A stretch of 64,000 nt of DNA, from NCBI RefSeq assembly GCF_013315695.1, contig NZ_CP054355.1, one strand, 5' to 3'. The translations under genes and the position numbers were made by a program. Below the pieces are notes generated by a model. That model did no database searches and was not told where the DNA came from. It was given only the letters and a program-made list of their open reading frames with translations. This document shows positions 2,703 to 62,826 of the stretch, one piece after another; within the stretch, counting starts at the first letter, position 1; each line of letters opens with the position of its first letter. Source of the DNA: Escherichia coli (GTDB lineage: Bacteria > Pseudomonadota > Gammaproteobacteria > Enterobacterales > Enterobacteriaceae).

Positions 2703-3401
2703 AATCATGTCCAGATCCGGCAGAACCAGCCTCATGCGCAGTTCTGGCTGGTTTTTGACGTTGATCGCGAGGGGGCAGCGATTGACTGGAGCGACCGGAA
2801 CGCTCCCGCGCCGAACATCACCGTAAAAAATCCTGTGAACGGTCATGCTCACCTGCTCTACGCGCTCAATATCGCCGTGAGAACCGCGCCGGACAGCTCG
2901 GTTAAGGCGCTGAAATACGCCGCTGCGATTGAACGTTCGCTGTGTGAGAAACTTTGTGCTGATGTGAACTACAGCGGACTGATTTGTAAAAATCCGTTCC
3001 ACCTGGAATGGCAGGTGATGGAGTGGCGAGAGGAAGCCTATACCCTCGATGAACTGGCTGATTATCTCGATTTGAGCGCCTCAGCGCGCCGTAGCATCGA
3101 TAAACATTACGGGATGGGGCGAAACTGCCACCTGTTCGAAATGACGCGCAAATGGGCTTACAGGGCGATTCGTCAGGGCTGGCCCGAATTCTCACAGTGG
3201 CTTGATGCCGTGATTCAGCGTGTCGAAATGTACAACGCATCGCTTCCCGTTCCGCTTTCACCGCCTGAATGTCGGGCTATTGGCAAGAGCATTGCGAAAT
3301 ACACGCACAGGAACTTCACGCCGGAAACTTTCGCACAGTATGTGGCTGATACGCACACATTAACGTACGTTTTCGTTCCATTGGCCCTCACCCCCCGATA
3401 A
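2703..3401 (+). pseudogene. ColE2-type plasmid Rep (primase-type initiator) remnant, lacking N-terminus and C-terminal DNA-binding region
   Basis: In-frame translation from the stop at 2700 gives ...FWLVFDVDREGAAIDWSDRNAPAPNITVKNP..NGHAHLLYAL..ICKNPFHLEWQ.., as remembered for ColE2 Rep; no ATG/GTG/TTG start before the GTG at 2835; protein ends early. Confidence 0.55.
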
Positions 3402-3732: not shown

Positions 3733-4608
3733 ATGAGAAAGTTCATCCTTATTTCTATGATAACGTTAGCTAGTGTTAGTCTGGGAGCCTGCAGACAGAA
3801 TGTCACCATAAAGCAGGATGCGCCAGGGCAGAAAGCTTTCCTGACTGACGGGCAGATTTACGATTTGCACAGTGGCAAAATTATTTCTAGCAGCGAGCTT
3901 TTGGCGGATCTTGCTACCGCTCAACATCTTATTATTGGTGAAAAACACGATAATGCCGAGCATCATCAGATTGAGCTTTGGCTTATTCAAAATTTGCTCA
4001 TCCAGCGACCACAGGGGAGTGTGTTGCTTGAGATGTTGACGTCAGAGCAACAGCCCCGAGTTAACCAAGTTAAATGTTGGCTGAAAGATAATCCTGTGGT
4101 TCGAGATAGCCGTGTTCAGGAACTACTTAACTGGCAAAAAGGGTGGTCCTGGGAGATGTATGGCGACATCGTCATGCAGCTATTACGTGGGCCTTACCCG
4201 CTGCTCAATGCCAACATTGGCCGGGAGCAGATATTGGCACTGTACAAAAAAAACGAATTTCCTAAAGGAAAAAAATCCACTGCACCTGTGGTACAAGAAG
4301 CTCTGCGTGAAACCATCATATCTATGCATGAAGGCAACCTTGAAAGCCAGCAACTGACGTCAATGCTCTCTATTCAGCAGCAGCGGGATCGCTACATGGC
4401 CCGCCAGCTTCTGAGTGCCCCGGTACCGTCGTTGTTGATTGCAGGTGGTTATCACGCGTCAAAAAGCATGGGCGTACCGTTACACATGGAAGATCTTGCC
4501 ACCGGCACCCATCCAGTGGTGTTGATGCTTGCAGAAAAAGGAATGAACATCACAGTAGATCATGCTGACTACGTGTGGTTTGTAGCGCCAGATACAACAA
4601 AAAGGTAA
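3733..4608 (+). CDS. cjrA: ChaN-like haem/iron-binding lipoprotein (CjrA-like)
   Basis: Signal peptide with lipobox-like SLGAC; size and position 5' of a TonB homologue and a TonB-dependent receptor as in the cjrABC-senB cluster. Confidence 0.55.
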   Translation: MRKFILISMITLASVSLGACRQNVTIKQDAPGQKAFLTDGQIYDLHSGKIISSSELLADLATAQHLIIGEKHDNAEHHQIELWLIQNLLIQRPQGSVLLEMLTSEQQPRVNQVKCWLKDNPVVRDSRVQELLNWQKGWSWEMYGDIVMQLLRGPYPLLNANIGREQILALYKKNEFPKGKKSTAPVVQEALRETIISMHEGNLESQQLTSMLSIQQQRDRYMARQLLSAPVPSLLIAGGYHASKSMGVPLHMEDLATGTHPVVLMLAEKGMNITVDHADYVWFVAPDTTKR

Positions 4609-9919: not shown

Positions 9920-10246
9920 ATGACTAAAAATACTCGTTTTTCCCCCGAAGTCCGTCAACGGGCAGTCCGTATGGTTCTGGAAAGTCAGGGCGAATATGAC
10001 TCACAATGGGCGACAATTTGTTCCATTGCCCCAAAGATTGGCTGTACACCGGAGACTCTGCGTGTCTGGGTACGCCAGCATGAGCGGAATACCGGAGGCG
10101 GTGATGGCGGGCTCACCACCGCTGAACGTCAGCGTCTGAAAGAGCTGGAACGTGAAAATCGTGAACTGCGCCGCAGTAACGATATCCTTCGCCAGGCTTC
10201 CGCTTATTTTGCGAAGGCGGAGTTCGACCGCCTCTGGAAAAAGTGA
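9920..10246 (+). CDS. IS629 transposase OrfA
   Basis: [19 protein letters not shown]... HTH/leucine-zipper OrfA of the IS3 family. Confidence 0.8.
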
Positions 10247-11133
10247 TGCCACTGCTGGATAAGCTGCGTAAGCTGTACGGGGTCGGACCGGTATGCAGTG
10301 AACTACATATTGCCCCGTCAACGTATTACCACTGTCAGCAACAGCGACATCATCCTGATAAACGCAGTGCCCGTGCGCAGCGCGATGACTGGCTGAAGAA
10401 AGAGATACTGCGCGTATACGATGGGAATCATCAGGTATACGGTGTGCGTAAAGTCTGGCGTCAGTTGTTACGGGAAGGAATCAGGGTAGCCAGATGTACA
10501 GTGGCGCGCCTCATGGCGGTTATGGGACTTGCCGGTGTTCTCCGGGGTAAAAAGGTCCGCACTACCGTCAGCCGGAAAGCCGTTGCCGCAGGCGACCGCG
10601 TAAACCGTCAGTTTGTGGCAGAACGTCCTGACCAGTTGTGGGTGGCTGATTTTACTTACGTCAGCACATGGCAGGGGGTCGTCTATGTGGCGTTCATCAT
10701 TGATGTGTTTGCCGGATACATCGTGGGGTGGCGGGTCTCATCGTCTATGGAAACGACATTCGTGTTGGATGCTCTGGAGCAGGCGTTATGGGCCCGTCGA
10801 CCGTCCGGCACGGTCCATCACAGTGATAAAGGTTCTCAGTATGTATCGCTGGCCTACACACAGCGGCTTAAGGAAGCCGGATTACTGGCATCAACAGGAA
10901 GTACAGGCGACTCGTATGACAACGCGATGGCGGAGAACATCAATGGTCTTTACAAAGCGGAGGTAATACACCGTAAGAGCTGGAAAAACCGTGCAGAAGT
11001 GGAACTGGCCACACTCACGTGGGTGGACTGGTATAACAATCGACGATTGCTGGAAAGGCTGGGCCATACTCCTCCGGCAGAAGCAGAAAAAGCTTATTAT
11101 GCTTCCATCGGAAACGATGATCTGGCAGCCTGA
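10243..11133 (+). CDS. IS629 transposase OrfB (DDE catalytic domain)
   Basis: IS3-family OrfB overlapping orfA in the -1 frame. Confidence 0.8.
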
Positions 11134-31208: not shown

Positions 31209-31295
31209 ACCATCCTGCACTTATGTTGCACAGAAGGAGTGAGCACAGAAAGAAGTCTTGAACTTTTCCGGGCATATAACTATACTCCCCGCATA

Positions 31296-31386
31296 GAGCA
31301 ACAGCTTCTATGCAGTTTCTTGTTAGCCCCGGTAATCTTTCCTACTCGCCAAAGTTGAAGAAGATTATCGGGGTTTTCGCTTTTCT
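31296..31386 (+). ncRNA. copA: CopA-like antisense RNA of the IncFII replicon (approximate)
   Basis: Plus-strand stem-loop ccccggtaatctt...aagattatcgggg followed by ttttcgctttt, between repA2 and repA1. Confidence 0.45.
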
Positions 31387-33352: not shown

Positions 33353-33596
33353 GTTATTCTCCATATCAGATAAATGGCACCTGTATTTCAGGCATCCTGA
33401 ACATTGCAGCACACAATGAATAACACCTTGTTTTGTGAAATAAATCACAAAATATAAAATCTCGACTTAATACGGAAAAAACTCTGTGCTACTCAGAACT
33501 GTACGGTCATACTGCCCGACCGGATATTAAAAAAAGCAAATCTCATGCATTATTCAGCCTTCTGAATCCCTGGAGTAATGAAGGCTGCTTTTTTCG

Positions 33597-33818
33597 TTAC
33601 ACCCTTCCCCGGCTGCGCCGGTGGCAGTGTTCAGCCCTTTTTCGGGCAAACTGCTGCCAGTCTGTCCGGGGCGCAACACCGGCAGCCCGTCGCCATGCTT
33701 CTGCCGCTTCCATCCAGCGTCCACTGACCTCCAGAATAACGGCCCGGCTTCCGGCACGCTGCCAGCGCCAGACCTGACCGTTCCGTGAACTGTTTCTGAA
33801 TCCATTCATCTTTATCAC
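33597..33818 (-). CDS. small Arg/Trp-rich hypothetical protein
   Basis: 73-aa ORF; weak support. Confidence 0.2.
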   Translation of the reverse strand: MIKMNGFRNSSRNGQVWRWQRAGSRAVILEVSGRWMEAAEAWRRAAGVAPRTDWQQFARKRAEHCHRRSRGRV

Positions 33819-36288: not shown

Positions 36289-39200
36289 TCAGTCTCCGCC
36301 CAGGGTTTTCTCTTTCTGCAGGTCACGAACCATATCCCGCTCCATCTGCTGCAGACGCTCCTGCAGCAGATTTTCCCGGGCAACCTCCCGGACCGCTTCC
36401 CGCTCCCGTTGTGATTCACGCAGCACACTCTCCGGCAGTGCGGTTTCCCGTTCAGATATGGCAGACCGGTCACGCTCCTGTCCGGCAATATCCCTGACAG
36501 CCAGCTCTGTTTTGCCATCCGGCAGGTCAGGTTTGTTCTCTGCCATTTTCCTGACAATTTCATCTGCGCGGCGTTCCGTTTCACGGCGGATGGCCTCTTC
36601 AGCCTGCCGCTGTGCCAGTACCTCTGCCGTGACCGGTTCGCCATTTCCGGCCCCCGGCTGGACGCTGTTATCCGGGATATCCCCCCACACGCGGCCACCG
36701 GTGATGGCACCGGGATTCCACGGACGACCTTCACCGGCAATTCTCACCACCACACCGCTGTCAGGATTATCACGGGCAATCCGGACGCCATCCTGCATAT
36801 TATCAGCCAGCAGGCTCTCTCCGTTACGGCTGCCCTGCAGGGCCACGAACTGCGCATCCCCGCTGCCTTTCACCCGTCCTTCACCACTGAATCCCCGCAG
36901 CCCGTTTCCGTCATCCGTGGTCAGTGGGTTCAGCCAGATACCAGCTGACTTGCCGTTACGGTCAAACGCCGGCAGTGCCACATACGGCTGCGGATATTTA
37001 CGTCCCGGTGCAATAAACCGTGCAGGGCTGTCTCCCCCGGCCAGCCCTGCCTGACGGAGAACGGCACGGCCTGCCGCCACGTCCCGCAGTTCCCGTGCCG
37101 TACTGAACAGCCGCTGCGCATTCATGACCTCCCGGTCCGGTTTCGGCTCCAGCACATCGTGGGCAGTTCCTTTCTGTACGGCATTGTTAATGGCATCCGT
37201 CCAGCCCTGACGGTTATCGGTGTACACCTGCACATGCTGCTTCATACGCGACAGGGCCACGTAGGCTGACTCAAAGCCGGCCATCAGTTTCCGGTTACCT
37301 TCCGTGCCTTCAAGCGCGATGGCAAAGGTTTCACTCGCCCCCTGCGCACCGTGGGCGGTGATGGCATAAGCCAGGTCAATATGTTGCTCTGCCCGCTCCT
37401 GGCCGGGGCGAATCACCCGGGTCTGCTGTCCGTCTGACAGCGTGACACTGTCACCGGAAACCGCTGTCACCGTCCAGACGCTGTTGGCCACATAACCGCG
37501 CTCCCGGTCACTCTTCGTGAAGCGCATCCGGTCGCCGGTCCCCACCCGGATTTTGTCCGGGGTGTACAGTGTGACACCTTCAGCCACCGCCTCCCGGGGC
37601 GAAATCAGCCGCGTGTTACCTTCCGCATCCTCCAGGGTTATCAGCCCGTCATCCTTGCTGATACCGGCAATCCGGTGATACACACTATCCACCAGGGCAA
37701 GGGCATCCGGGTTATTCTCCCAGGTGGAGAGACGACGCAGCTCCCCGTCACGTATATTCGCTGTGTTCAGGACAGGCACCATGACCTGCTCTTTCCCCAG
37801 CTCACCGGCCTTTTCCCGTGCATCATGAATCATGCTGTTCAGTACGCGCCGGTCCTCATTCAGGTGCGTGACAATCAGCGTCTGCTCCCGTGCTTCCGGT
37901 GTCCTGCCGGTATAGTCGCGGACAATGGCTTCATACAGTGTCATGGGGACATCCGGAAAAGTCTCACCTTTCAGCATCGCCTTCTGCTGCGCTTCTGCCA
38001 GTTTCGCTTCCTGGCTGTGACTGAACTCCGTCACGGAGTGCTCCGGTGCCCATGCGCCCTCCTGACGGGGAACCTGAGACGGTTTCACACTCTCAAGCCC
38101 GGACAGTGCCCTTTCCACATCCCGGTTAATCAGGCTGTATACCGCCTCCCGCAGTTCCGGCGTCTGACGCACAATCTCCTTCATGATGACCACATCGGCA
38201 GCACTGCGCGTCTGCTGGAGACGGAAAGGCTGACCGGGCGCGATGGCCTGCAGCTGGTCCGTGTCACCACTGGCCACGGCACGACCGCCACCGGCCGCAA
38301 TCAGGGCGTATGCCCGTGCCATGTCGGTATTGCCCACCATTGAGCTCTCATCGAGCAGGAACAGCGTGTTGCTGAAATCCGGCGTTTCTCCGCTGCGCTG
38401 CTGCAGCTGCGTGTCATGCAGAAAGGACGCCAGCGTCTGTGCATCCACGCCGGCGCTGCGCATCTCACCGACCGCACGGTGCGTGGGCCCCAGCCCCACA
38501 ACTCGGGGACGCTCACTCGCCGGCAGCATGTTCACGGCTGACATCACCGCCCGGAACTGTGTGGTCTTACCCACACCGGCATAACCCTGTACCACCGTGA
38601 AACGGTCGGACGTTTCCAGTATCATACGGGTGGCGGCACGCTGTCCCGACGTTAACGTCTCCATGAGTTCGCCGGGTACTCTCTCCATCAGCGGCGTGAC
38701 CGCCTCCTTACCTTCGAGAATATGGCGAAGAATACTTTTTTCTGCCTCATACGACGCACGGGAAACCAGCAGGCCTGTGCCATAGCCTTTTGCCACATCC
38801 ACATACAGTAAGTCACCGCGTTTTATCTGCGCATTGATTTCCCCTCCCAGTTCAGTAAAACCGGTTCCTTCTGCAGCAAACGACTTCGCCTCTGTCAGCA
38901 GGTCCACCATGCTGAAGGCCAGGTTTTTACTTTCCAGCACAGGAAGGGCCAGATGAATGGCCTGCTGTGCCGGCGTGTGCAGCCCGGTTTTCTGCAGACT
39001 GATAGCGGTTTCCAGCGATGTCTCACCGGCCCGCGCCTTTATCTGCTCAGAAACCACCGTAAAGGAGGGATGGCGGGCAAGTTTTTCCGCAGTACGGGTT
39101 TCATCCAGTGAGGAATACAGCCGGACATCACGACCGCTGCGGGCCAGACCGTTCAGGGTGGCGTTGTCCATTGCCATCTGTGTGACGGAGGCAAACACCG

Positions 39201-46029: not shown

Positions 46030-48851
46030 AATGGCCCCTTCAATCGTTCTTTCTTATCATCCACCATCTGTTTTAACGCATCTTCAGACGGTGTTGGCAT
46101 TAATTTCTGTCGTTTATTTTCTTCATTATATCTGTTGTTTTGCTGAATTTCTTCCTGTTTGTGATTATTTTTTAACTCTGAATATTGTCTGTCTACAATA
46201 TTTTCTTCGCCATGAATACTATTCTGAGTATCTCCGATATTCCCTTTATATTCTGTGACCATATTATCAACCTGATGTTTTACATCATTACGGATATTAC
46301 TGTCCTGCGTTCTTTGATCAATAATGACCTGATGCCCCTGATGGTCAGCAATAATATCCTGGCTGCCACCACCCGAAGGTACGCTCTCCATTCCTTTACC
46401 AATATCCCCACGGGATTCACGCCAGGCATTATCAACACCAGGCTGTACCTGTTCCTGCACAAAAGACCACGCCATAGCCCGACGGCGTTCTGCAATCTCC
46501 GGCGAACTGGTATTTGTCAGAATAGCTTCTGCATCCTGCGGTGCGCGTTTCATCACATACTGTGCAAACTGTTGCGACAAGTCTTCACTCATCTGCCCGC
46601 TCATGCTTTCAGTACGGGAGGCCATTTCCGCATATTCATGGCTGCGGGTCATATTCGTCGTGTACTGGTCGTAACTCTGTTTTGCTGAGTTCAGGGCTGC
46701 AGACAACTGGTCCACGCGGGAATCGGCATTATTGTCAGTATGGCTGCCGGATTCACTGACTTTGCGACTGGTAAAGTAATCGCTGGCCTCTTTAAAGTCC
46801 TTACTGGCTTTAGCATCGATATCATGGCGAGCATCATGGGTAGCCCTGCTGCCACTACTTGCTGAATGTGAGTCATCATCCGTTGCATCCAGGCTCCCCT
46901 TAAATCCACCTCTGATGCCTACCCCACCACCAACACCAAGAATTTTAGGTTTAACCCCCCATTCAGCATGAGCATCAGCATACATTCCACCAGATAGCCT
47001 GGTACTTGTTGATGCCAGTTCCTGAGTCGCCTGCTCATTACTGATATTATGCGCCTTCGCATAGCTTTCCACTGCACTGCGCATACGGCTGGCCATCATG
47101 GAGTCCTGTGCGCTCATCGTGCTGTCAGCACCACCTGTGACAGAATCACTGCTCCCCCGGTTAGAACCAAACTGGCTGAGCGAGTTCCAGGCACTGGCAA
47201 TACTGCTGCTGAACCCATGCAGGGCGCTTTCTGCTCTGTTCGACGCCTCCCGGGCCATTTCCTGTTGTGCCGCTGCAATCTGACGCGTTGCATTGATACC
47301 AACCGGTAACCGGGACATCGCCCCGCTCGCATCCATCACCATATTACCGTCACGGGTCTGTGTGGCAGTTGCGCCACTGCCGGTCTGGTACATCATCTGA
47401 CCAAACGACGTGGTGCTGTTGGTGCTCCAGCTGAAGCCGTTCACGTTTTCCGTCTGCATGTTGCCGTAGGAGTAATTACCGTCAACCACACTACCTGCCG
47501 CACTGGCAGTCGGGCTGATAGCAGAGGAAGCGAAATGGCTGTACACGCTGGAAAAACCTGCGCCAAGGCCTTTTACCATCATCCATGACAACGGGGGTAT
47601 CATGACAGATATATATCCGGCAGTGGACGCCAGGTCGGAGTATTTCAGCTGTATCTGAGAGAGTTCAGAGAGCACGACCGGTGCACCATTCTGCTTTGCA
47701 TAGAATGTCATGGCACTGTTCAGAATGGCATACAGCAACGGCCAGGTCTGGAACCACATCAGAGCAAACACATAGCCTCTCAGAACAGACAGCGTCAGTC
47801 TGTTGAAGACAGCCGCCAGTACCAGGAGCGGGAAGATACCAATGGTAATGCCCACCAGAATGGTCTGCACCATCGGCAGGTTTCGCATCAGCACATGACC
47901 AATGGAGACATGTGCCAGACGCTGTTTCTCCATTGACGAAGTCGTGGCCAGACTGACCAGGCTGGCGGTATCACCGTTACGGGCTGCATTACTGGTGATA
48001 CCCTCTTTCAGGGCATTCATGGTGACGTTCTGGCGCATAATATGACTGGCAGACTGGCTGGAGCCGTAGAAATAACTGTAACTGTCACTCACCAGTTGCC
48101 TGAATAACAGGTCCGGGTCCGGTCTGCCGCCAAATATCTGCTGCACATAATAATGCCAGGTCTTGCCTCCCGTCTTTGTATCGAGATTCAGCCTGTCTTT
48201 CAGCGTGACCGACGCATCTTTACAGGTTATGAAATTATTATTGCTGTCATAAACGCCCCGTAGCGGGCTGGGCCGGGAAAAAATCAGCGTGTAGGGGTCA
48301 CCGGAGGCCATCAGGTCTTCCAGCGTGTATTTGTGGTTCAGGTAAATATCCCCCAGCACGCAGTTCTGGACGTAGTCCTGAAACAGATTGATGATTTCCG
48401 GATTCCGGGACAGAAAATCGGTGCTTTTCACAATCAGGTTCGCCCCGAACAGCATGCCTGTCTTGCTGTAGGTGGCGCTGTCAGGCTGGGTGAATATCAT
48501 CTCGTAACTGGCCACCATTGCATGCCCGATACGGGTCGTCAGTGAAAGTGGCATCGCCAGTCCGACCGGCACATTATCCACCCGGTGAACTTTGACCAGG
48601 TCACTGTTATCAATAATCTGCACCGATGTACGGACATTAACCAGCAGGCTGATAAGCACAAACACGGCCACCCAGCCCAGCAAATCCATCACGTTGTGCC
48701 GCTGTACCCACATCACGGCCACCGCGAGAACAGACAATGTGAGCGCAATTTTTTCGATGGAATCCCACGTCCGGGTCCCCATAAAGGCGGCAATGGCGTT
48801 CAGGTTATTGCTTAACCACTCACCACCGGCAATCACATAGACTTCATTCAC
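46026..48851 (-). CDS. traG: mating-pair stabilisation protein TraG
   Basis: 941 aa, polytopic N-terminus, position. Confidence 0.85.
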   Translation of the reverse strand: MNEVYVIAGGEWLSNNLNAIAAFMGTRTWDSIEKIALTLSVLAVAVMWVQRHNVMDLLGWVAVFVLISLLVNVRTSVQIIDNSDLVKVHRVDNVPVGLAMPLSLTTRIGHAMVASYEMIFTQPDSATYSKTGMLFGANLIVKSTDFLSRNPEIINLFQDYVQNCVLGDIYLNHKYTLEDLMASGDPYTLIFSRPSPLRGVYDSNNNFITCKDASVTLKDRLNLDTKTGGKTWHYYVQQIFGGRPDPDLLFRQLVSDSYSYFYGSSQSASHIMRQNVTMNALKEGITSNAARNGDTASLVSLATTSSMEKQRLAHVSIGHVLMRNLPMVQTILVGITIGIFPLLVLAAVFNRLTLSVLRGYVFALMWFQTWPLLYAILNSAMTFYAKQNGAPVVLSELSQIQLKYSDLASTAGYISVMIPPLSWMMVKGLGAGFSSVYSHFASSAISPTASAAGSVVDGNYSYGNMQTENVNGFSWSTNSTTSFGQMMYQTGSGATATQTRDGNMVMDASGAMSRLPVGINATRQIAAAQQEMAREASNRAESALHGFSSSIASAWNSLSQFGSNRGSSDSVTGGADSTMSAQDSMMASRMRSAVESYAKAHNISNEQATQELASTSTRLSGGMYADAHAEWGVKPKILGVGGGVGIRGGFKGSLDATDDDSHSASSGSRATHDARHDIDAKASKDFKEASDYFTSRKVSESGSHTDNNADSRVDQLSAALNSAKQSYDQYTTNMTRSHEYAEMASRTESMSGQMSEDLSQQFAQYVMKRAPQDAEAILTNTSSPEIAERRRAMAWSFVQEQVQPGVDNAWRESRGDIGKGMESVPSGGGSQDIIADHQGHQVIIDQRTQDSNIRNDVKHQVDNMVTEYKGNIGDTQNSIHGEENIVDRQYSELKNNHKQEEIQQNNRYNEENKRQKLMPTPSEDALKQMVDDKKERLKGPL

Positions 48852-59337: not shown

Positions 59338-59863
<526 letters not shown>

Positions 59864-60559
59864 AGTACACCTCTTTTTGACATACTTCGGGTATGCATAT
59901 AAGTATATATTATTATGATGCAAAAATCAGCGCGCAAATACACATACTGTTATCTTACTTTTAGTAAGCCTTATTTATTTTACCTTGCGTTATGTTAACC
60001 AATAAAAATCAAAATCTGACTTATAAAAACAAACCGTAATTATCGCATTCCCGTTTCCGTCAGATCCGACTTTCATTAATATCACAACTTTCCGGAAGTG
60101 TACCACGCTGAGAAAATCATCATATCACTGTTTTCCGCCCCTGCGCGGCGCATCACAGGTCAGGGAGATGGCACAACATATAGTGTAATTAACAGCTAAA
60201 TTCAGCACTACATGTTGTGCTGACGGGAGATGGCGCTGTGCGGCGGGAGAGGAAGATCCGTGACTACCTTTTTTCGGATCTTATTAGTGTAGAAGAACGA
60301 TTGTTGCGGTGAGGGGATTATTGCTTAGGAAGCAAAATTCAAAACTGACTAAGCCAGAAATAGCAACAACAAGATAAGGAAATTTTCCCCCTCAGCCCCT
60401 GCATGCCGTGAGGGGGAGCAACTACCCAACTACAGTTTTCATTTTATGATACGTCTTCACTAGGTAATACCTGTGAACTGACAGAGTCTTTACGGAATGT
60501 ATGGCGGACCTAAATTTGATCCCTGAAAACTGTCAGCGCTGCGAGGACGAAGAAAGTAT

Positions 60560-60730
60560 TACGGCTAAAGCCGTAATACCTCCCCATCCAGCTTCAAGCT
60601 ATGTAGAAACTTATGTGGGTAGAGCAGTCCCGACAGGGCAGTACCGCATTGACAGGCCGTCAGGGCCGCTTACGAGCTTGTATGACAAGGGGGGCCTAGC
60701 GAATTATTGTACGGTAAGCCTTTTTTGAAC
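60560..60730. other. structured non-coding element Y (diverged homologue of element X)
   Basis: Shares ccccatcc...cttYtgtg...gtcccgac...ggccgtcagggccgcttacgagcttgta with 29640-29770. Confidence 0.35.
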
Positions 60731-61054
60731 AGCCTTACCTATTGCTATAGAGGGGAACTCCTACGTTATACGCCGCTTTCAGGGGATTCGACCTTAATGA
60801 GACAACTCAAATATGATCGACAACTTAAACGCGATAGTTGCTGATAAAATCAATCCATTACGCGTTTCAATTGATTAAATAATGCACTTAATGTACAAAA
60901 ATTCCCGATCTCAAAACTGAACCCTAAAGATACCAGGCATCTCCCCCAGGAAGCGCCCTCATGCGTTTTCCTGTTCCGCCCCTGCCACCTACCTTCTGTT
61001 ACATACTTGTTGTATTATTGTTTTTGTTTTCAATCCCCAAGGAGACGTCGCTAT

Positions 61055-61222
61055 ATGACTGTGCGGGAGACAGAGGAAAACATTGAACAAATCTTCCCTG
61101 AGCTTTCGAACTTAATTGATATTATTAATAAATGGCTTTCCCATGGAAACATTGATCCTGAACTGGCACACTTCATCATTTATCTTCTTGATTACCTAAC
61201 CACCACACACAAAAGCATATAA
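61055..61222 (+). CDS. small acidic protein (55 aa), unknown function
   Basis: ATG preceded by AAGGAG at -10; followed by a terminator. Confidence 0.4.
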   Translation: MTVRETEENIEQIFPELSNLIDIINKWLSHGNIDPELAHFIIYLLDYLTTTHKSI

Positions 61223-61332
61223 AAAATTTCCTTGCACATCCATTTTTTTGCGAATATTATTATTCCTGCTGAATATGATTCAATATCGCACGCTACTCAT
61301 CCATCCCAGGATAATGAGTTCATAGGTTGAAG

Positions 61333-61360
61333 TCTCAACACCCCCACTACGGGGGTGTTT
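61333..61360 (+). terminator. Rho-independent terminator
   Basis: acacccccactacgggggtg hairpin followed by T8. Confidence 0.6.
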
Positions 61361-61488
61361 TTTTTACCAATAAACACAAATCACACCATCGCCATACTCT
61401 GTTTGCCAGACATCGATTGGTAAATATGCGTAACTCGCTATAATACAAAAAGAAAAATCAGAACCAGAAACCAGTTTCCAGATAAAAA

Positions 61489-61513
61489 ACACCCTCCCGA
61501 AGGAGGGGACAGA
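61489..61513 (-). terminator. Rho-independent terminator (minus strand)
   Basis: ccctcccgaaggaggg hairpin preceded by an A-run on the plus strand. Confidence 0.5.
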
Positions 61514-62047
61514 CACATTCATATTTCCCAAAACAGGAATTTTTATTTTTATGACGCATTAATGAAGTTACTTCATCTCCAGTAGATTAACTTCATTTAA
61601 AGTGGCGATCAATCATATTTATTACGACTCTAAACTATTACAACAACCACAATAAGATATCACCTCAAATATAAAAGATAATTCTTACAAAAACGTTCCG
61701 AAAACAAAAAATACAGATAAACACCAATTAATTCAGAGCAATCTATTGCGAAGAATCAGAGTAACAGGGCCCCATGATATAATCATGGGGCCCTGTTGCT
61801 TTTACAGATGTAAAAACGACCAATCATTTAACATCTGTTATCGGCACCGCCCCGGACGGGTTCGGCGCAAATATGGTATGGTACCAGCCCGGCAATTCAC
61901 CTGCCGTGCAATCTGACGAAGCAGTACCGGCGTATGCAGATATATCGTCCAGACATATCTGCCGCATTCAGGCGGTGAGTAAAGCCTTCTCTCTCAAAAG
62001 AGGAGCAACAGTTATCCACAGATTCTGGGGATAACTGCGAAAAGAAT

Positions 62048-62188
62048 ATGTGCCAGGAAAGTCGGCTCCCGGGAAAAAGACCGCTGGCGGCGCACCTGCT
62101 GGATACGAAAGCTGAGCTGAAAGGATCCCGGGAGGACGTCCGTAAACTTCAGTCCCTGGCCCGTCATGACGGGAAGGCGAAAAAGTGA
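62048..62188 (+). CDS. small basic ORF (46 aa) coupled to the downstream ORF
   Basis: Stop TGA overlaps the GTG start of the next ORF (GTGA); weak RBS. Confidence 0.25.
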   Translation: MCQESRLPGKRPLAAHLLDTKAELKGSREDVRKLQSLARHDGKAKK

Positions 62189-62826
62189 ATGCGGACACCT
62201 GGACCCGCCTGCAGGCCTTCCGACATGCTCTGGAGCTGACTTCCTGTGAGGCTTCTCTCACCGCCGGGTATGATCACCTGAAGGATTTCCCGGCCGGTTG
62301 CAGCGAGCTGGCCAGCCAGACGCTGACTGATTATCTGACGGAAGACGGCAGCAACCTGTACTCCTGTATTGTCGGTATGCAGTGGGATAATGGTCCTGGC
62401 AGATACGGCCACGTCATTGCCGACCCTGCCAGGGACTATATCGACCTAACCCTTGATCAGTTTCCAGGCTATCATAACCGGATTGTGGCAGAGCCCGTTG
62501 AGTCCGGCGGACAGCTCGCGGCAGACCTCAACAGGGAGCCTGCCATCAGTACAGCTGATGGAATAGTGGCCAGCCCATCAGATAAGGTTAATTACATTAC
62601 TGAACAGAAAAATCGCCAGCCAATGGTGATCATTACAGAATGTTACAAGCTGATCAGAATGACGGCAAGATTTATACCAATGTGCCAGTCATCTCAACTC
62701 TTCCAGCACCAGGTATTCCCTCGCTTATTTATCATTTCAGACGTTGGCTCCTGCAGTTTGTCCAGGAACACCTTAGATCGTTTAGCTACTGACTGGAAGG
62801 TGACACTGTCCATCCTGTCGCTATAG
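62185..62826 (+). CDS. hypothetical protein (up to 213 aa; C-terminal extent uncertain)
   Basis: N-terminal 160 aa look protein-like with several Cys and a GHVIAD segment; convergent overlapping ORF on the other strand. Confidence 0.3.
   Translation: MNADTWTRLQAFRHALELTSCEASLTAGYDHLKDFPAGCSELASQTLTDYLTEDGSNLYSCIVGMQWDNGPGRYGHVIADPARDYIDLTLDQFPGYHNRIVAEPVESGGQLAADLNREPAISTADGIVASPSDKVNYITEQKNRQPMVIITECYKLIRMTARFIPMCQSSQLFQHQVFPRLFIISDVGSCSLSRNTLDRLATDWKVTLSILSL

Follow-up and report, generated by a model that had tools for sequence, protein, structure and literature searches.

The uptR locus of F-like plasmids and its probable origin in a captured ColE1-type plasmid

Some small RNAs (sRNAs), such as DapZ and MicL, are embedded at the 3' end of a gene, have a promoter of their own and share the terminator of the gene upstream. 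Rcd is a small RNA that is transcribed from within the cer site of the plasmid ColE1. Rop (Rom) is a helical-hairpin RNA-binding protein of 63 amino acids (aa). The sRNA UptR is said to have been described by Guigueno, Dassa, Belin and Boquet in 2001 (J Bacteriol 183:1147) as an untranslated RNA of ~92 nucleotides (nt), and its overproduction reportedly relieves the toxicity of unfoldable DsbA'-PhoA export hybrids. Here, we analyze a locus that can be compared with each of these systems. It lies in a 64,000-nt stretch of Escherichia coli DNA (contig NZ_CP054355.1, assembly GCF_013315695.1), which is called the window throughout. Positions 60900-61800 of the window had been flagged in a sequence-only reading, made without database searches, as a small open reading frame (ORF) with its own terminator, facing an sRNA transcribed from the other strand.

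From comparison of related plasmids, we consider it likely that the flagged region is the uptR locus of F-like plasmids and that it lies within a ~1.15-kb relic of a ColE1-type plasmid. Three lineages were compared: the F type; the plasmid pLR24_1, which is 94% identical to the F type; and the L009-type plasmid, a small ColE1-type plasmid carrying a 72% identical homologue. pUTI89 (NC_007941) and many other IncF plasmids carry the flagged stretch at 100% identity, and the F plasmid itself matches it at 99.4%.

UptR and the probable relic of a ColE1-type plasmid

The UptR family of Rfam (RF02568) matches the plus strand of the window at 61268-61359. The 92-nt match spans model positions 1-92 of 92 and scores 123.6 bits against a gathering score of 100 (E = 1.7e-21). 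With its U-tail, the predicted sRNA gene occupies 61268-61365. Its 3' end is formed by a plus-strand terminator, T1 (61337-61365), which was found by the terminator scan and lies inside the structure of the Rfam model. T1 has a 9-bp stem at 61337-61359 with six G-C pairs, a T-run that reaches 61365 (T8) and a folding energy of -16.0 kcal/mol, and it shows the G+C-rich stem-loop and U-tract of at least five residues by which intrinsic terminators are recognized. The sequence-only reading had assigned this clean terminator to the ORF. It belongs instead to UptR, which lies between the ORF and the terminator.

A promoter-like site, TGCACA-16-TATTAT (61233-61260, plus strand), was found by the promoter scan in the 45-nt gap after the ORF, and it ends 7 nt before the 5' end of UptR. 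Its hexamers and spacing are the same in pLR24_1, and the version in the L009-type plasmid reads TGCACA-16-TATCAT. The promoter and 5' part of uptR are 76-78% identical to that plasmid, which carries a divergent UptR copy at its positions 4117-4201 (35 bits). We predict that uptR is an independent transcription unit with a sigma-70-type promoter-like site and an intrinsic terminator. The terminator scan found no terminator-like site between the ORF stop at 61222 and position 61337. Therefore, any ORF transcript should read through uptR and end at T1, and UptR would then also be the 3' untranslated end of the ORF mRNA.

Common natural variants of UptR (61307, 61320, 61321 and 61334) fall in a loop or the linker, and the copy on the F plasmid differs at three positions. 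The 5' segment AAUUCAAUAUCGCACG is invariant and unpaired, and UptR may act in trans through it. UptR is counted among base-pairing riboregulators in PMC5665550, with Guigueno et al. 2001 as source. A target search with UptR and with the minus-strand RNA described below, using perfect 10-mer complementarity to the window or the L009-type plasmid, gave nothing conserved. A 13-nt complementary match at ~59094 could be expected by chance. Scanning the window for duplexes with full-length UptR was uninformative, as the method ignores intramolecular structure.

The DNA around uptR is very probably what is left of a captured ColE1-type plasmid. When it was aligned to the L009-type plasmid and to ColE1, the segment from ~60916 to 62060 proved to consist of four blocks that are collinear with a circularly permuted ColE1-type plasmid. 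Their order is that of the circular plasmid opened beside its origin. At the left end, a remnant of the RNA II template (60916-60993) is 82% identical to positions 3243-3320 of the L009-type plasmid and 81% identical to 1125-1048 of ColE1; in the intact plasmids, this sequence lies ~80-155 nt upstream of the replication origin. The second block, 61038-61834, is the module of ORF, UptR and terminator. In the L009-type plasmid, this module comes after the RNA II promoter region and continues round the circle. At the right end, 61972-62060 is a homologue of the DnaA-box region, found by local alignment to 3056-3135 of the L009-type plasmid and 1302-1239 of ColE1, and the corresponding region lies just downstream of the ColE1-type origin. 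When the alignment to ColE1 was extended as far as the origin, the right side gave marginal similarity (z = 2.0) and the left side none (z = 0.5).

Between the module and the DnaA-box region lies a damaged Xer core of the cer type (61826-61848, minus strand). Its XerC-like arm reads GGTGCCGATAA, and its XerD arm has lost 5-6 bp. The window aligns with the L009-type plasmid only up to this core, where TTATGG is missing, and the XerC side is unrelated. At 167-430, the L009-type plasmid has an intact cer homologue, which scores z = 18.6 in alignment with ColE1 cer and whose core reads AGTACGCATAA-ACAGATG-TTATGGTAAAT. A search of 60000-62300 for a Xer core with 11-bp arms 6-8 bp apart and at most three mismatches per arm found none, and nothing in the window resembles the accessory sequences on the XerC side of cer (z = -0.1 and 1.5). 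F-type plasmids may thus carry an old joint made by Xer recombination, which afterwards became inactive. The breaks in homology at the Xer core and beside the origin suggest that the plasmid was captured through cointegration at these two places.

Approximately 550 bp with the RNA II promoter and RNA I have been deleted, mob and rop are missing, and 78 nt of the RNA II template are left. No RNA I match was found in the window; the L009-type plasmid, ColE1, pACN001-E and pPst each have one. With neither RNA I nor an RNA II promoter, the segment does not qualify as a ColE1-type replicon. Since RNA I is absent and the RNA II template is cut to 78 nt, we regard the segment as a relic and not a replicon. 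uptR is absent from ColE1 itself and from two other ColE1-type plasmids that were checked.

The remnant of the RNA II template has many relatives. Its 69 nt at 60925-60993 match ~1465 small plasmids at 80-90% identity, in E. coli, Salmonella, Shigella, Klebsiella and Yersinia (pPst), and 82% of the records matching it, small plasmids included, are mobilizable. A CCAGG...CCTGG hairpin inside it was scored as a weak minus-strand terminator-like site.

The segment is present in 362 of 72,556 plasmid records in PLSDB, F included, and in 365 of 5,426 complete E. coli genomes (~7%). Among the 372 places where it was found, 357 are plasmid-borne and 15 chromosomal, one of them on the chromosome of strain KLY. 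Further searches of PLSDB with tblastn and blastn returned F-type copies only, and two scans of GTDB species genomes found no homologues. All 45 loci from a metagenome scan are F-type or pLR24-type. A first scan of viral contigs gave no match, and a second gave 65 chance 15-mer matches without extended similarity.

In the window, the left neighbour of the locus is ccdAB (59338-59923, minus strand). To the right are a gene for a 213-aa hypothetical protein and then the RepFIB initiator gene, a gene of the RepB family ~2 kb downstream of the locus. In pLR24_1, the block 60826-62089 has another setting, between sopA and insertion sequence (IS) elements, and we take the block to behave as a unit because it is placed differently there. 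F and pUTI89 have common sequence only from 60265 rightwards. To the left of this point, genes of the pif region, for a KAP NTPase and a TIR-domain protein, are found in F, and ccdAB and an integrase in pUTI89. Thus, the locus lies at a recombination joint between plasmid backbones. One plasmid, NZ_CP145701.1, has an IS1 insertion somewhere in the equivalent of 60900-61820.

The candidate convergent minus-strand RNA and the probable 55-codon gene

The terminator scan also found a minus-strand terminator, T2 (61484-61508), which is convergent with T1 and reads CCCTCC-UUCG-GGAGGG followed by U6. Its 6-bp stem lies at 61507-61492 around a UUCG loop, its T6 at 61489-61484, and its folding energy is -11.7 kcal/mol. 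Like T1, it has the stem-loop and U-tract of at least five residues of an intrinsic terminator. T2 is 92% identical in the L009-type plasmid, and the sole change in the stem-loop falls in the loop (UUCG to UUCA). Both terminators are unchanged between the F type and pLR24_1, and both are kept in the L009-type plasmid. There are five terminator-like sites in 4 kb, compared with 3.4 +/- 1.9 in shuffled sequence. This count is at chance level, so the case for T1 and T2 rests on their quality and conservation. The two terminators are also alike in sequence: 61341-61375 and 61474-61508 form the 35-nt arms of an inverted repeat (CCCCCACTACGGGGGTGTTTTTTTT and CCCCTCCTTCGGGAGGGTGTTTTTTAT), which are 71% complementary.

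Conservation extends from T2 into the DNA that would be transcribed before it. The next 97 nt beyond T2 are 81% identical to the L009-type plasmid, and the island as a whole reaches 81-92%, compared with 45-47% in its flanks. From this island and from paired changes, we propose a candidate noncoding RNA of ~120 nt on the minus strand (61605-61484), the 5' end of which is estimated, and we put its existence at an even chance. The predicted fold is the same in both lineages: a two-tier hairpin (61597-61561), an A/U-rich linker, a small hairpin and T2. Of the cells at paired positions, 95.8% can pair, compared with 43-57% in a control with the partners slid. Two pairs have changed in a compensatory manner relative to the L009-type plasmid (G-C to A-U and U-A to C-G), and one U-A has become U-G, where the plus strand would have a C.A mismatch. 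This covariation, which comes in essence from two deep lineages, is suggestive. Comparison with the L009-type plasmid showed no conserved ORF in this minus-strand region, and the candidate RNA has no Rfam match. Its complementarity to UptR is not above that of shuffled sequences.

The likeliest -10 element of the candidate RNA is TATGAT (61612-61617, minus strand). This possible element is conserved in the L009-type plasmid (87% identity) at the edge of the island, where conservation drops. In the p1303 lineage, TATGAT has become TATAAT, while an alternative hexamer upstream, TATCTT (61658), is disrupted. The promoter to which that hexamer would belong, TTATCT-16-TATCTT (61681-61654), is also conserved in the L009-type plasmid; it was judged less likely than TATGAT, as its -11 A is disrupted in the p1303 lineage.

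An alternative to a discrete RNA is that T2 is a mere leftover or insulator, an old transcription end from the ancestral cer and mob side that now shields uptR from antisense read-through. We hold this somewhat doubtful. It would account for the lack of a recognizable -35 element and for the failure of the promoter scan to find any promoter-like site on the minus strand in 61510-61800. It also fits the L009-type plasmid, where T2 comes after mob and cer on the strand that they share, and the covariation is thin, its score being reached in 22 of 500 shuffles. Against it stand a sharp island of conservation over ~120 nt upstream of T2, a hairpin maintained through two double changes, and a possible -10 element that sits at the island edge and has mutated to consensus in one lineage. 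Moreover, the mob operon is gone from F-type plasmids, and yet 61484-61560 is unchanged relative to pLR24_1. If the candidate RNA is real, T2 would end a conserved convergent transcript of ~120 nt, and the back-to-back arrangement of T1 and T2 would hold the converging transcripts apart.

Upstream of uptR, the 55-codon ORF MTVRETEENIEQIFPELSNLIDIINKWLSHGNIDPELAHFIIYLLDYLTTTHKSI runs on the plus strand from an ATG at 61055 to a TAA ending at 61222. Its product has 9 acidic and 3 basic residues. The sequence-only reading had noted an acidic 55-aa ORF with a near-consensus Shine-Dalgarno sequence, and both are present: AAGGAG lies at 61039-61044, 10 nt before the ATG, a spacing slightly longer than optimal. 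F, pLR24_1 and the L009-type plasmid all have the same AAGGAG at the same distance from the start position. The start codon is ATG in both F-type lineages. Older records call the product a hypothetical protein (WP_000218294.1).

The pattern of substitution argues that the ORF is a real small protein gene, which we regard as probable. Its identity to the L009-type plasmid is 78%, with 32 substitutions over 144 alignable nt, distributed 6/9/17 over codon positions 1/2/3. Twelve of the 27 changed codons are synonymous, compared with 3-7 in the other five frames, so that synonymous changes are three to four times commoner than in most other frames. When the same substitutions were re-placed at random, 12 synonymous codons arose in 0.1% of trials (permutation P = 0.001). 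The frame contains no stop in either the F-type or the L009-type lineage. Relative to pLR24_1, the ORF has one change in 168 nt, which is synonymous, and the flanks differ by ~7%. Among 38 loci, the ORF has the lowest variant density of the module, below even UptR (3.0 compared with 9-20 sites per 100 nt). The sequence-only reading had named a lack of transcription and of ORF conservation as what would refute it, and the ORF is conserved. We consider the evidence for a selected coding sequence to be new, though modest.

For the ORF product, HMMER over 1.8 billion representative proteins found one real relative, P0020, a 63-aa protein of 67% identity. It is encoded on ~4.5-kb plasmid contigs from draft assemblies of E. 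coli and Salmonella, which we take to be ColE1-type plasmids because rop, mobC, a relaxase gene and RNA I are aboard. With P0020 as query, a word-indexed protein search returned the protein itself only. With the ORF product as query, a word-indexed search covering 5.8 billion proteins and a tblastn search of PLSDB found near-identical copies only, plus sporadic frameshifted or in-frame-deleted variants. The product has no match in Pfam, NCBIfam or PDB sequences, and at E <= 10, Pfam gave one chance match of 11 bits, to a family other than Rop (PF01815). AlphaFold (AF2, single sequence) predicted a two-helix hairpin with a predicted local distance difference test score (pLDDT) of 80.6, and structure searches returned generic helical hairpins without a fold-specific match. 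The ORF product is probably a small acidic helical-hairpin protein that is kept by purifying selection.

Rare variants of the ORF (proteins P0011, P0016 and P0005) have in-frame deletions of 9 or 13 codons or a 3-codon insertion, and the 9-codon deletion falls between short ATTGAT repeats. Frameshifted and truncated copies are also found in assemblies.

Several points weigh against reading the locus as a protein gene followed by conserved RNAs. The comparative statistics lean largely on one deep comparison, two of the three lineages being 94% identical, and the UptR alignment shows no compensatory change. In the L009-type copy, the ORF starts with ACG and has no canonical in-frame start, and an 11-nt indel alters its C-terminus. 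In the window, the promoter scan found no convincing promoter ahead of the ORF. Neither the ORF nor uptR is annotated in the current RefSeq records of pUTI89 and the JM109 F', and among the representative proteins searched, the ORF has no relative outside this module. The ACG start, the lack of an evident promoter and the missing annotation would fit an ORF that is untranslated, with RNAs as the only gene products. Its conservation would then come from a role at the level of RNA or DNA, such as forming the 5' portion of an extended UptR precursor. The absence of a protein family, a fold-specific match or a distant homologue also speaks for this. We find this rather unlikely. Against it stand the concentration of substitutions at third codon positions, the excess of synonymous changes described above, and a frame that is open in both lineages, with the AAGGAG and its spacing kept. 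The ORF is also the least polymorphic segment of the module. The reading that we prefer remains a translated ORF followed by UptR.

A type I toxin-antitoxin pair, which would need a hydrophobic toxin of ~30-60 aa overlapped by or complementary to an antisense RNA, was considered and is not supported: the ORF product is acidic and without a membrane-spanning stretch, complementarity between UptR and the candidate minus-strand RNA is not above that of shuffles, and the minus-strand region has no conserved ORF.

The AT-rich stretch, the palindrome and the DnaA boxes

The stretch at 61509-61759 has 29.1% G+C, compared with 50.3% for the window, and its longest stop-free run is 34 codons. Its left 100 nt fall within the candidate minus-strand RNA, and its right part (61621-61759) is only 45% identical to the L009-type plasmid. 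At 61728/61729, pUTI89-type plasmids lack 76 bp that are found in F, pLR24_1 and p1303_109, and the L009-type plasmid likewise has extra sequence near this position.

To the right of this stretch, an inverted-repeat search found a palindromic hairpin with 19-nt arms (61760-61778 and 61782-61800, plus strand), which is confined to the F lineage; the equivalent sequence in the L009-type plasmid is not palindromic. It has a 3-nt loop and, as a plus-strand RNA, a folding energy of -35.3 kcal/mol. Its 19-bp stem is followed by four U on the plus strand and by none on the minus strand, and the terminator scan did not call it. Variants at 61762 (window, U.G) and 61792 (pLR24_1, G.U) give wobble pairs on the plus strand and an A.C or C.A mismatch on the minus strand. 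Since the variants pair on the plus strand only, they point to a plus-strand RNA hairpin. The palindrome is most consistent with such a hairpin or, given its four U, with a weak terminator at best. Rfam hits to mir-5595 are artefacts of the palindrome (30 bits against a cut-off of 100), and a CrcZ hit, well below the cut-off, was also dismissed. p1303_109 (L006) and several metagenome contigs have lost the equivalent of 61768-62002. This deletion starts in the left arm of the palindrome, stops shortly before the DnaA box and is flanked by two AACAG repeats, and it has removed the palindrome and the Xer remnant.

Between T1 and T2, where the spacer is 47% identical to the L009-type plasmid, the promoter scan found TTGGTA-16-TATAAT (61417-61444, plus strand). 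With 10 of 12 positions, it is the best promoter match in 4 kb. This site is also confined to the F lineage and is not conserved in the L009-type plasmid. In pLR24_1, a 4-bp deletion leaves TTGGTT-16-TATAAT, which has the right spacing and is weaker, below the threshold of the scan. The site and the palindrome may be later additions of the F lineage that perhaps bracket an antisense transcript. It is possible that such a plus-strand RNA runs from ~61451 to ~61804, antisense to the candidate minus-strand RNA.

In the sequence-only reading, the plus-strand terminator served the ORF alone, and a minus-strand sRNA filled the AT-rich stretch from the palindrome to 61489. We regard this arrangement as very improbable. 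The elements that it named are all in the sequence, that is, the two terminators, the palindrome and the AT-rich stretch without an ORF, and the part beside T2 is conserved. A small protein plus an sRNA was right in kind. Its assignment was not, as UptR occupies the 115 nt that precede the plus-strand terminator, and the demonstrable sRNA is therefore on the strand of the ORF. On the minus strand, comparative support covers the ~120 nt beside T2; the rest is poorly conserved, with 45% identity at 61621-61759 and the 76-bp indel between F and pUTI89. The palindrome, which was supposed to enclose the minus-strand RNA, is missing from the distant homologue, and its variants speak for the opposite strand.

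Within the right-hand block of the relic, a perfect DnaA box, TTATCCACA, at 62012-62020 and an inverted 8-of-9 copy, TTATCCCCA, at 62034-62026 (minus strand) together make a 14-nt inverted repeat. It is hardly credible that the AT-rich stretch, these inverted boxes (62012-62034) and the hairpins serve the neighbouring RepFIB replicon as a working origin or as another site that acts as DNA. The 29% G+C, the boxes and the nearby RepB-family initiator gene would suit an origin, but the DnaA-box block has its homologue downstream of ColE1-type origins, the RNA I/RNA II control region that a ColE1-type origin needs is deleted, 60700-62300 contains no iterons or repeat families, and in pLR24_1, IS elements separate the module from this RepFIB gene. 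A 46-codon ORF (62048-62188) overlaps the DnaA-box relic and is probably spurious.

The rest of the window is an IncFII/FIB conjugative backbone with IS3-type elements. Its other Rfam matches above the cut-off are an ALIL pseudoknot (10201-10317), a CopA-like RNA (31293-31382), AS-pc02 (33516-33700), AS-traI (38634-38710) and AS-traG (48047-48132). A literature search for transcriptomes of pUTI89 or the F plasmid returned nothing relevant.

Significance and comparison with known systems

Nothing at this locus falls outside the known kinds of element. UptR has been known since 2001, and the core of the finding is ordinary. What is new is modest: the probable origin of the locus as a ColE1-type relic and the candidate convergent noncoding RNA. 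UptR is usually listed as an E. coli sRNA, and its distribution, with 357 of 372 places on plasmids, is that of a plasmid gene. The 55-codon gene to which it is physically coupled is more constrained than any other part of the locus and is a natural starting point in the search for the native role of UptR. The locus is also a concrete case of a conjugative plasmid that keeps only the small regulatory genes of a small plasmid it has captured. The candidate convergent RNA, if true, would be one more plasmid sRNA.

One broader and speculative scheme, which we think improbable in its entirety, would join these parts. The ORF, UptR and the minus-strand RNA would form a portable cassette of one protein and two RNAs, captured from a ColE1-type plasmid through cointegration and kept by selection after replication, mobilisation and resolution had decayed. 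The Rop-like hairpin protein would work with both sRNAs on the envelope or export physiology of the host, to the benefit of the plasmid.

Compared with ColE1-type plasmids, the relic has kept a remnant of the RNA II template, the ORF-UptR-terminator module of the L009 type, the XerD side of a cer-type core and the DnaA-box region. Unlike them, it lacks RNA I, the RNA II promoter, rop, mob and an intact Xer core. The ORF product resembles Rop in being of similar size and acidic, with a predicted two-helix hairpin, and its gene likewise sits on a ColE1-type backbone beside small RNAs. It gave no match to the Rop family of Pfam (PF01815) and no BLASTP alignment to the Rop of the L009-type plasmid. 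The candidate minus-strand RNA is comparable to Rcd in its position on the cer side, since in the L009-type plasmid the cer-type core precedes it on its own strand. It differs from Rcd in ending ~340 nt beyond the core and in having no similarity to ColE1, and the core in the window is damaged.

The arrangement of the ORF and UptR is like that of DapZ and MicL. The two are co-directional with no terminator between them, the sRNA promoter stands at the end of the ORF, and in the L009 homologue, the ORF runs into the sRNA promoter. Unlike in those systems, the promoter in the window comes after the stop codon and not within the coding sequence, and co-transcription of the two is a prediction. 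With UptR itself, the agreement is complete: the match is full-length in sequence and structure, with no structural difference. To the known sRNA, the present comparison adds a context, namely F-like plasmids, in which UptR lies behind a conserved small ORF inside what is very probably the relic of a ColE1-type plasmid.

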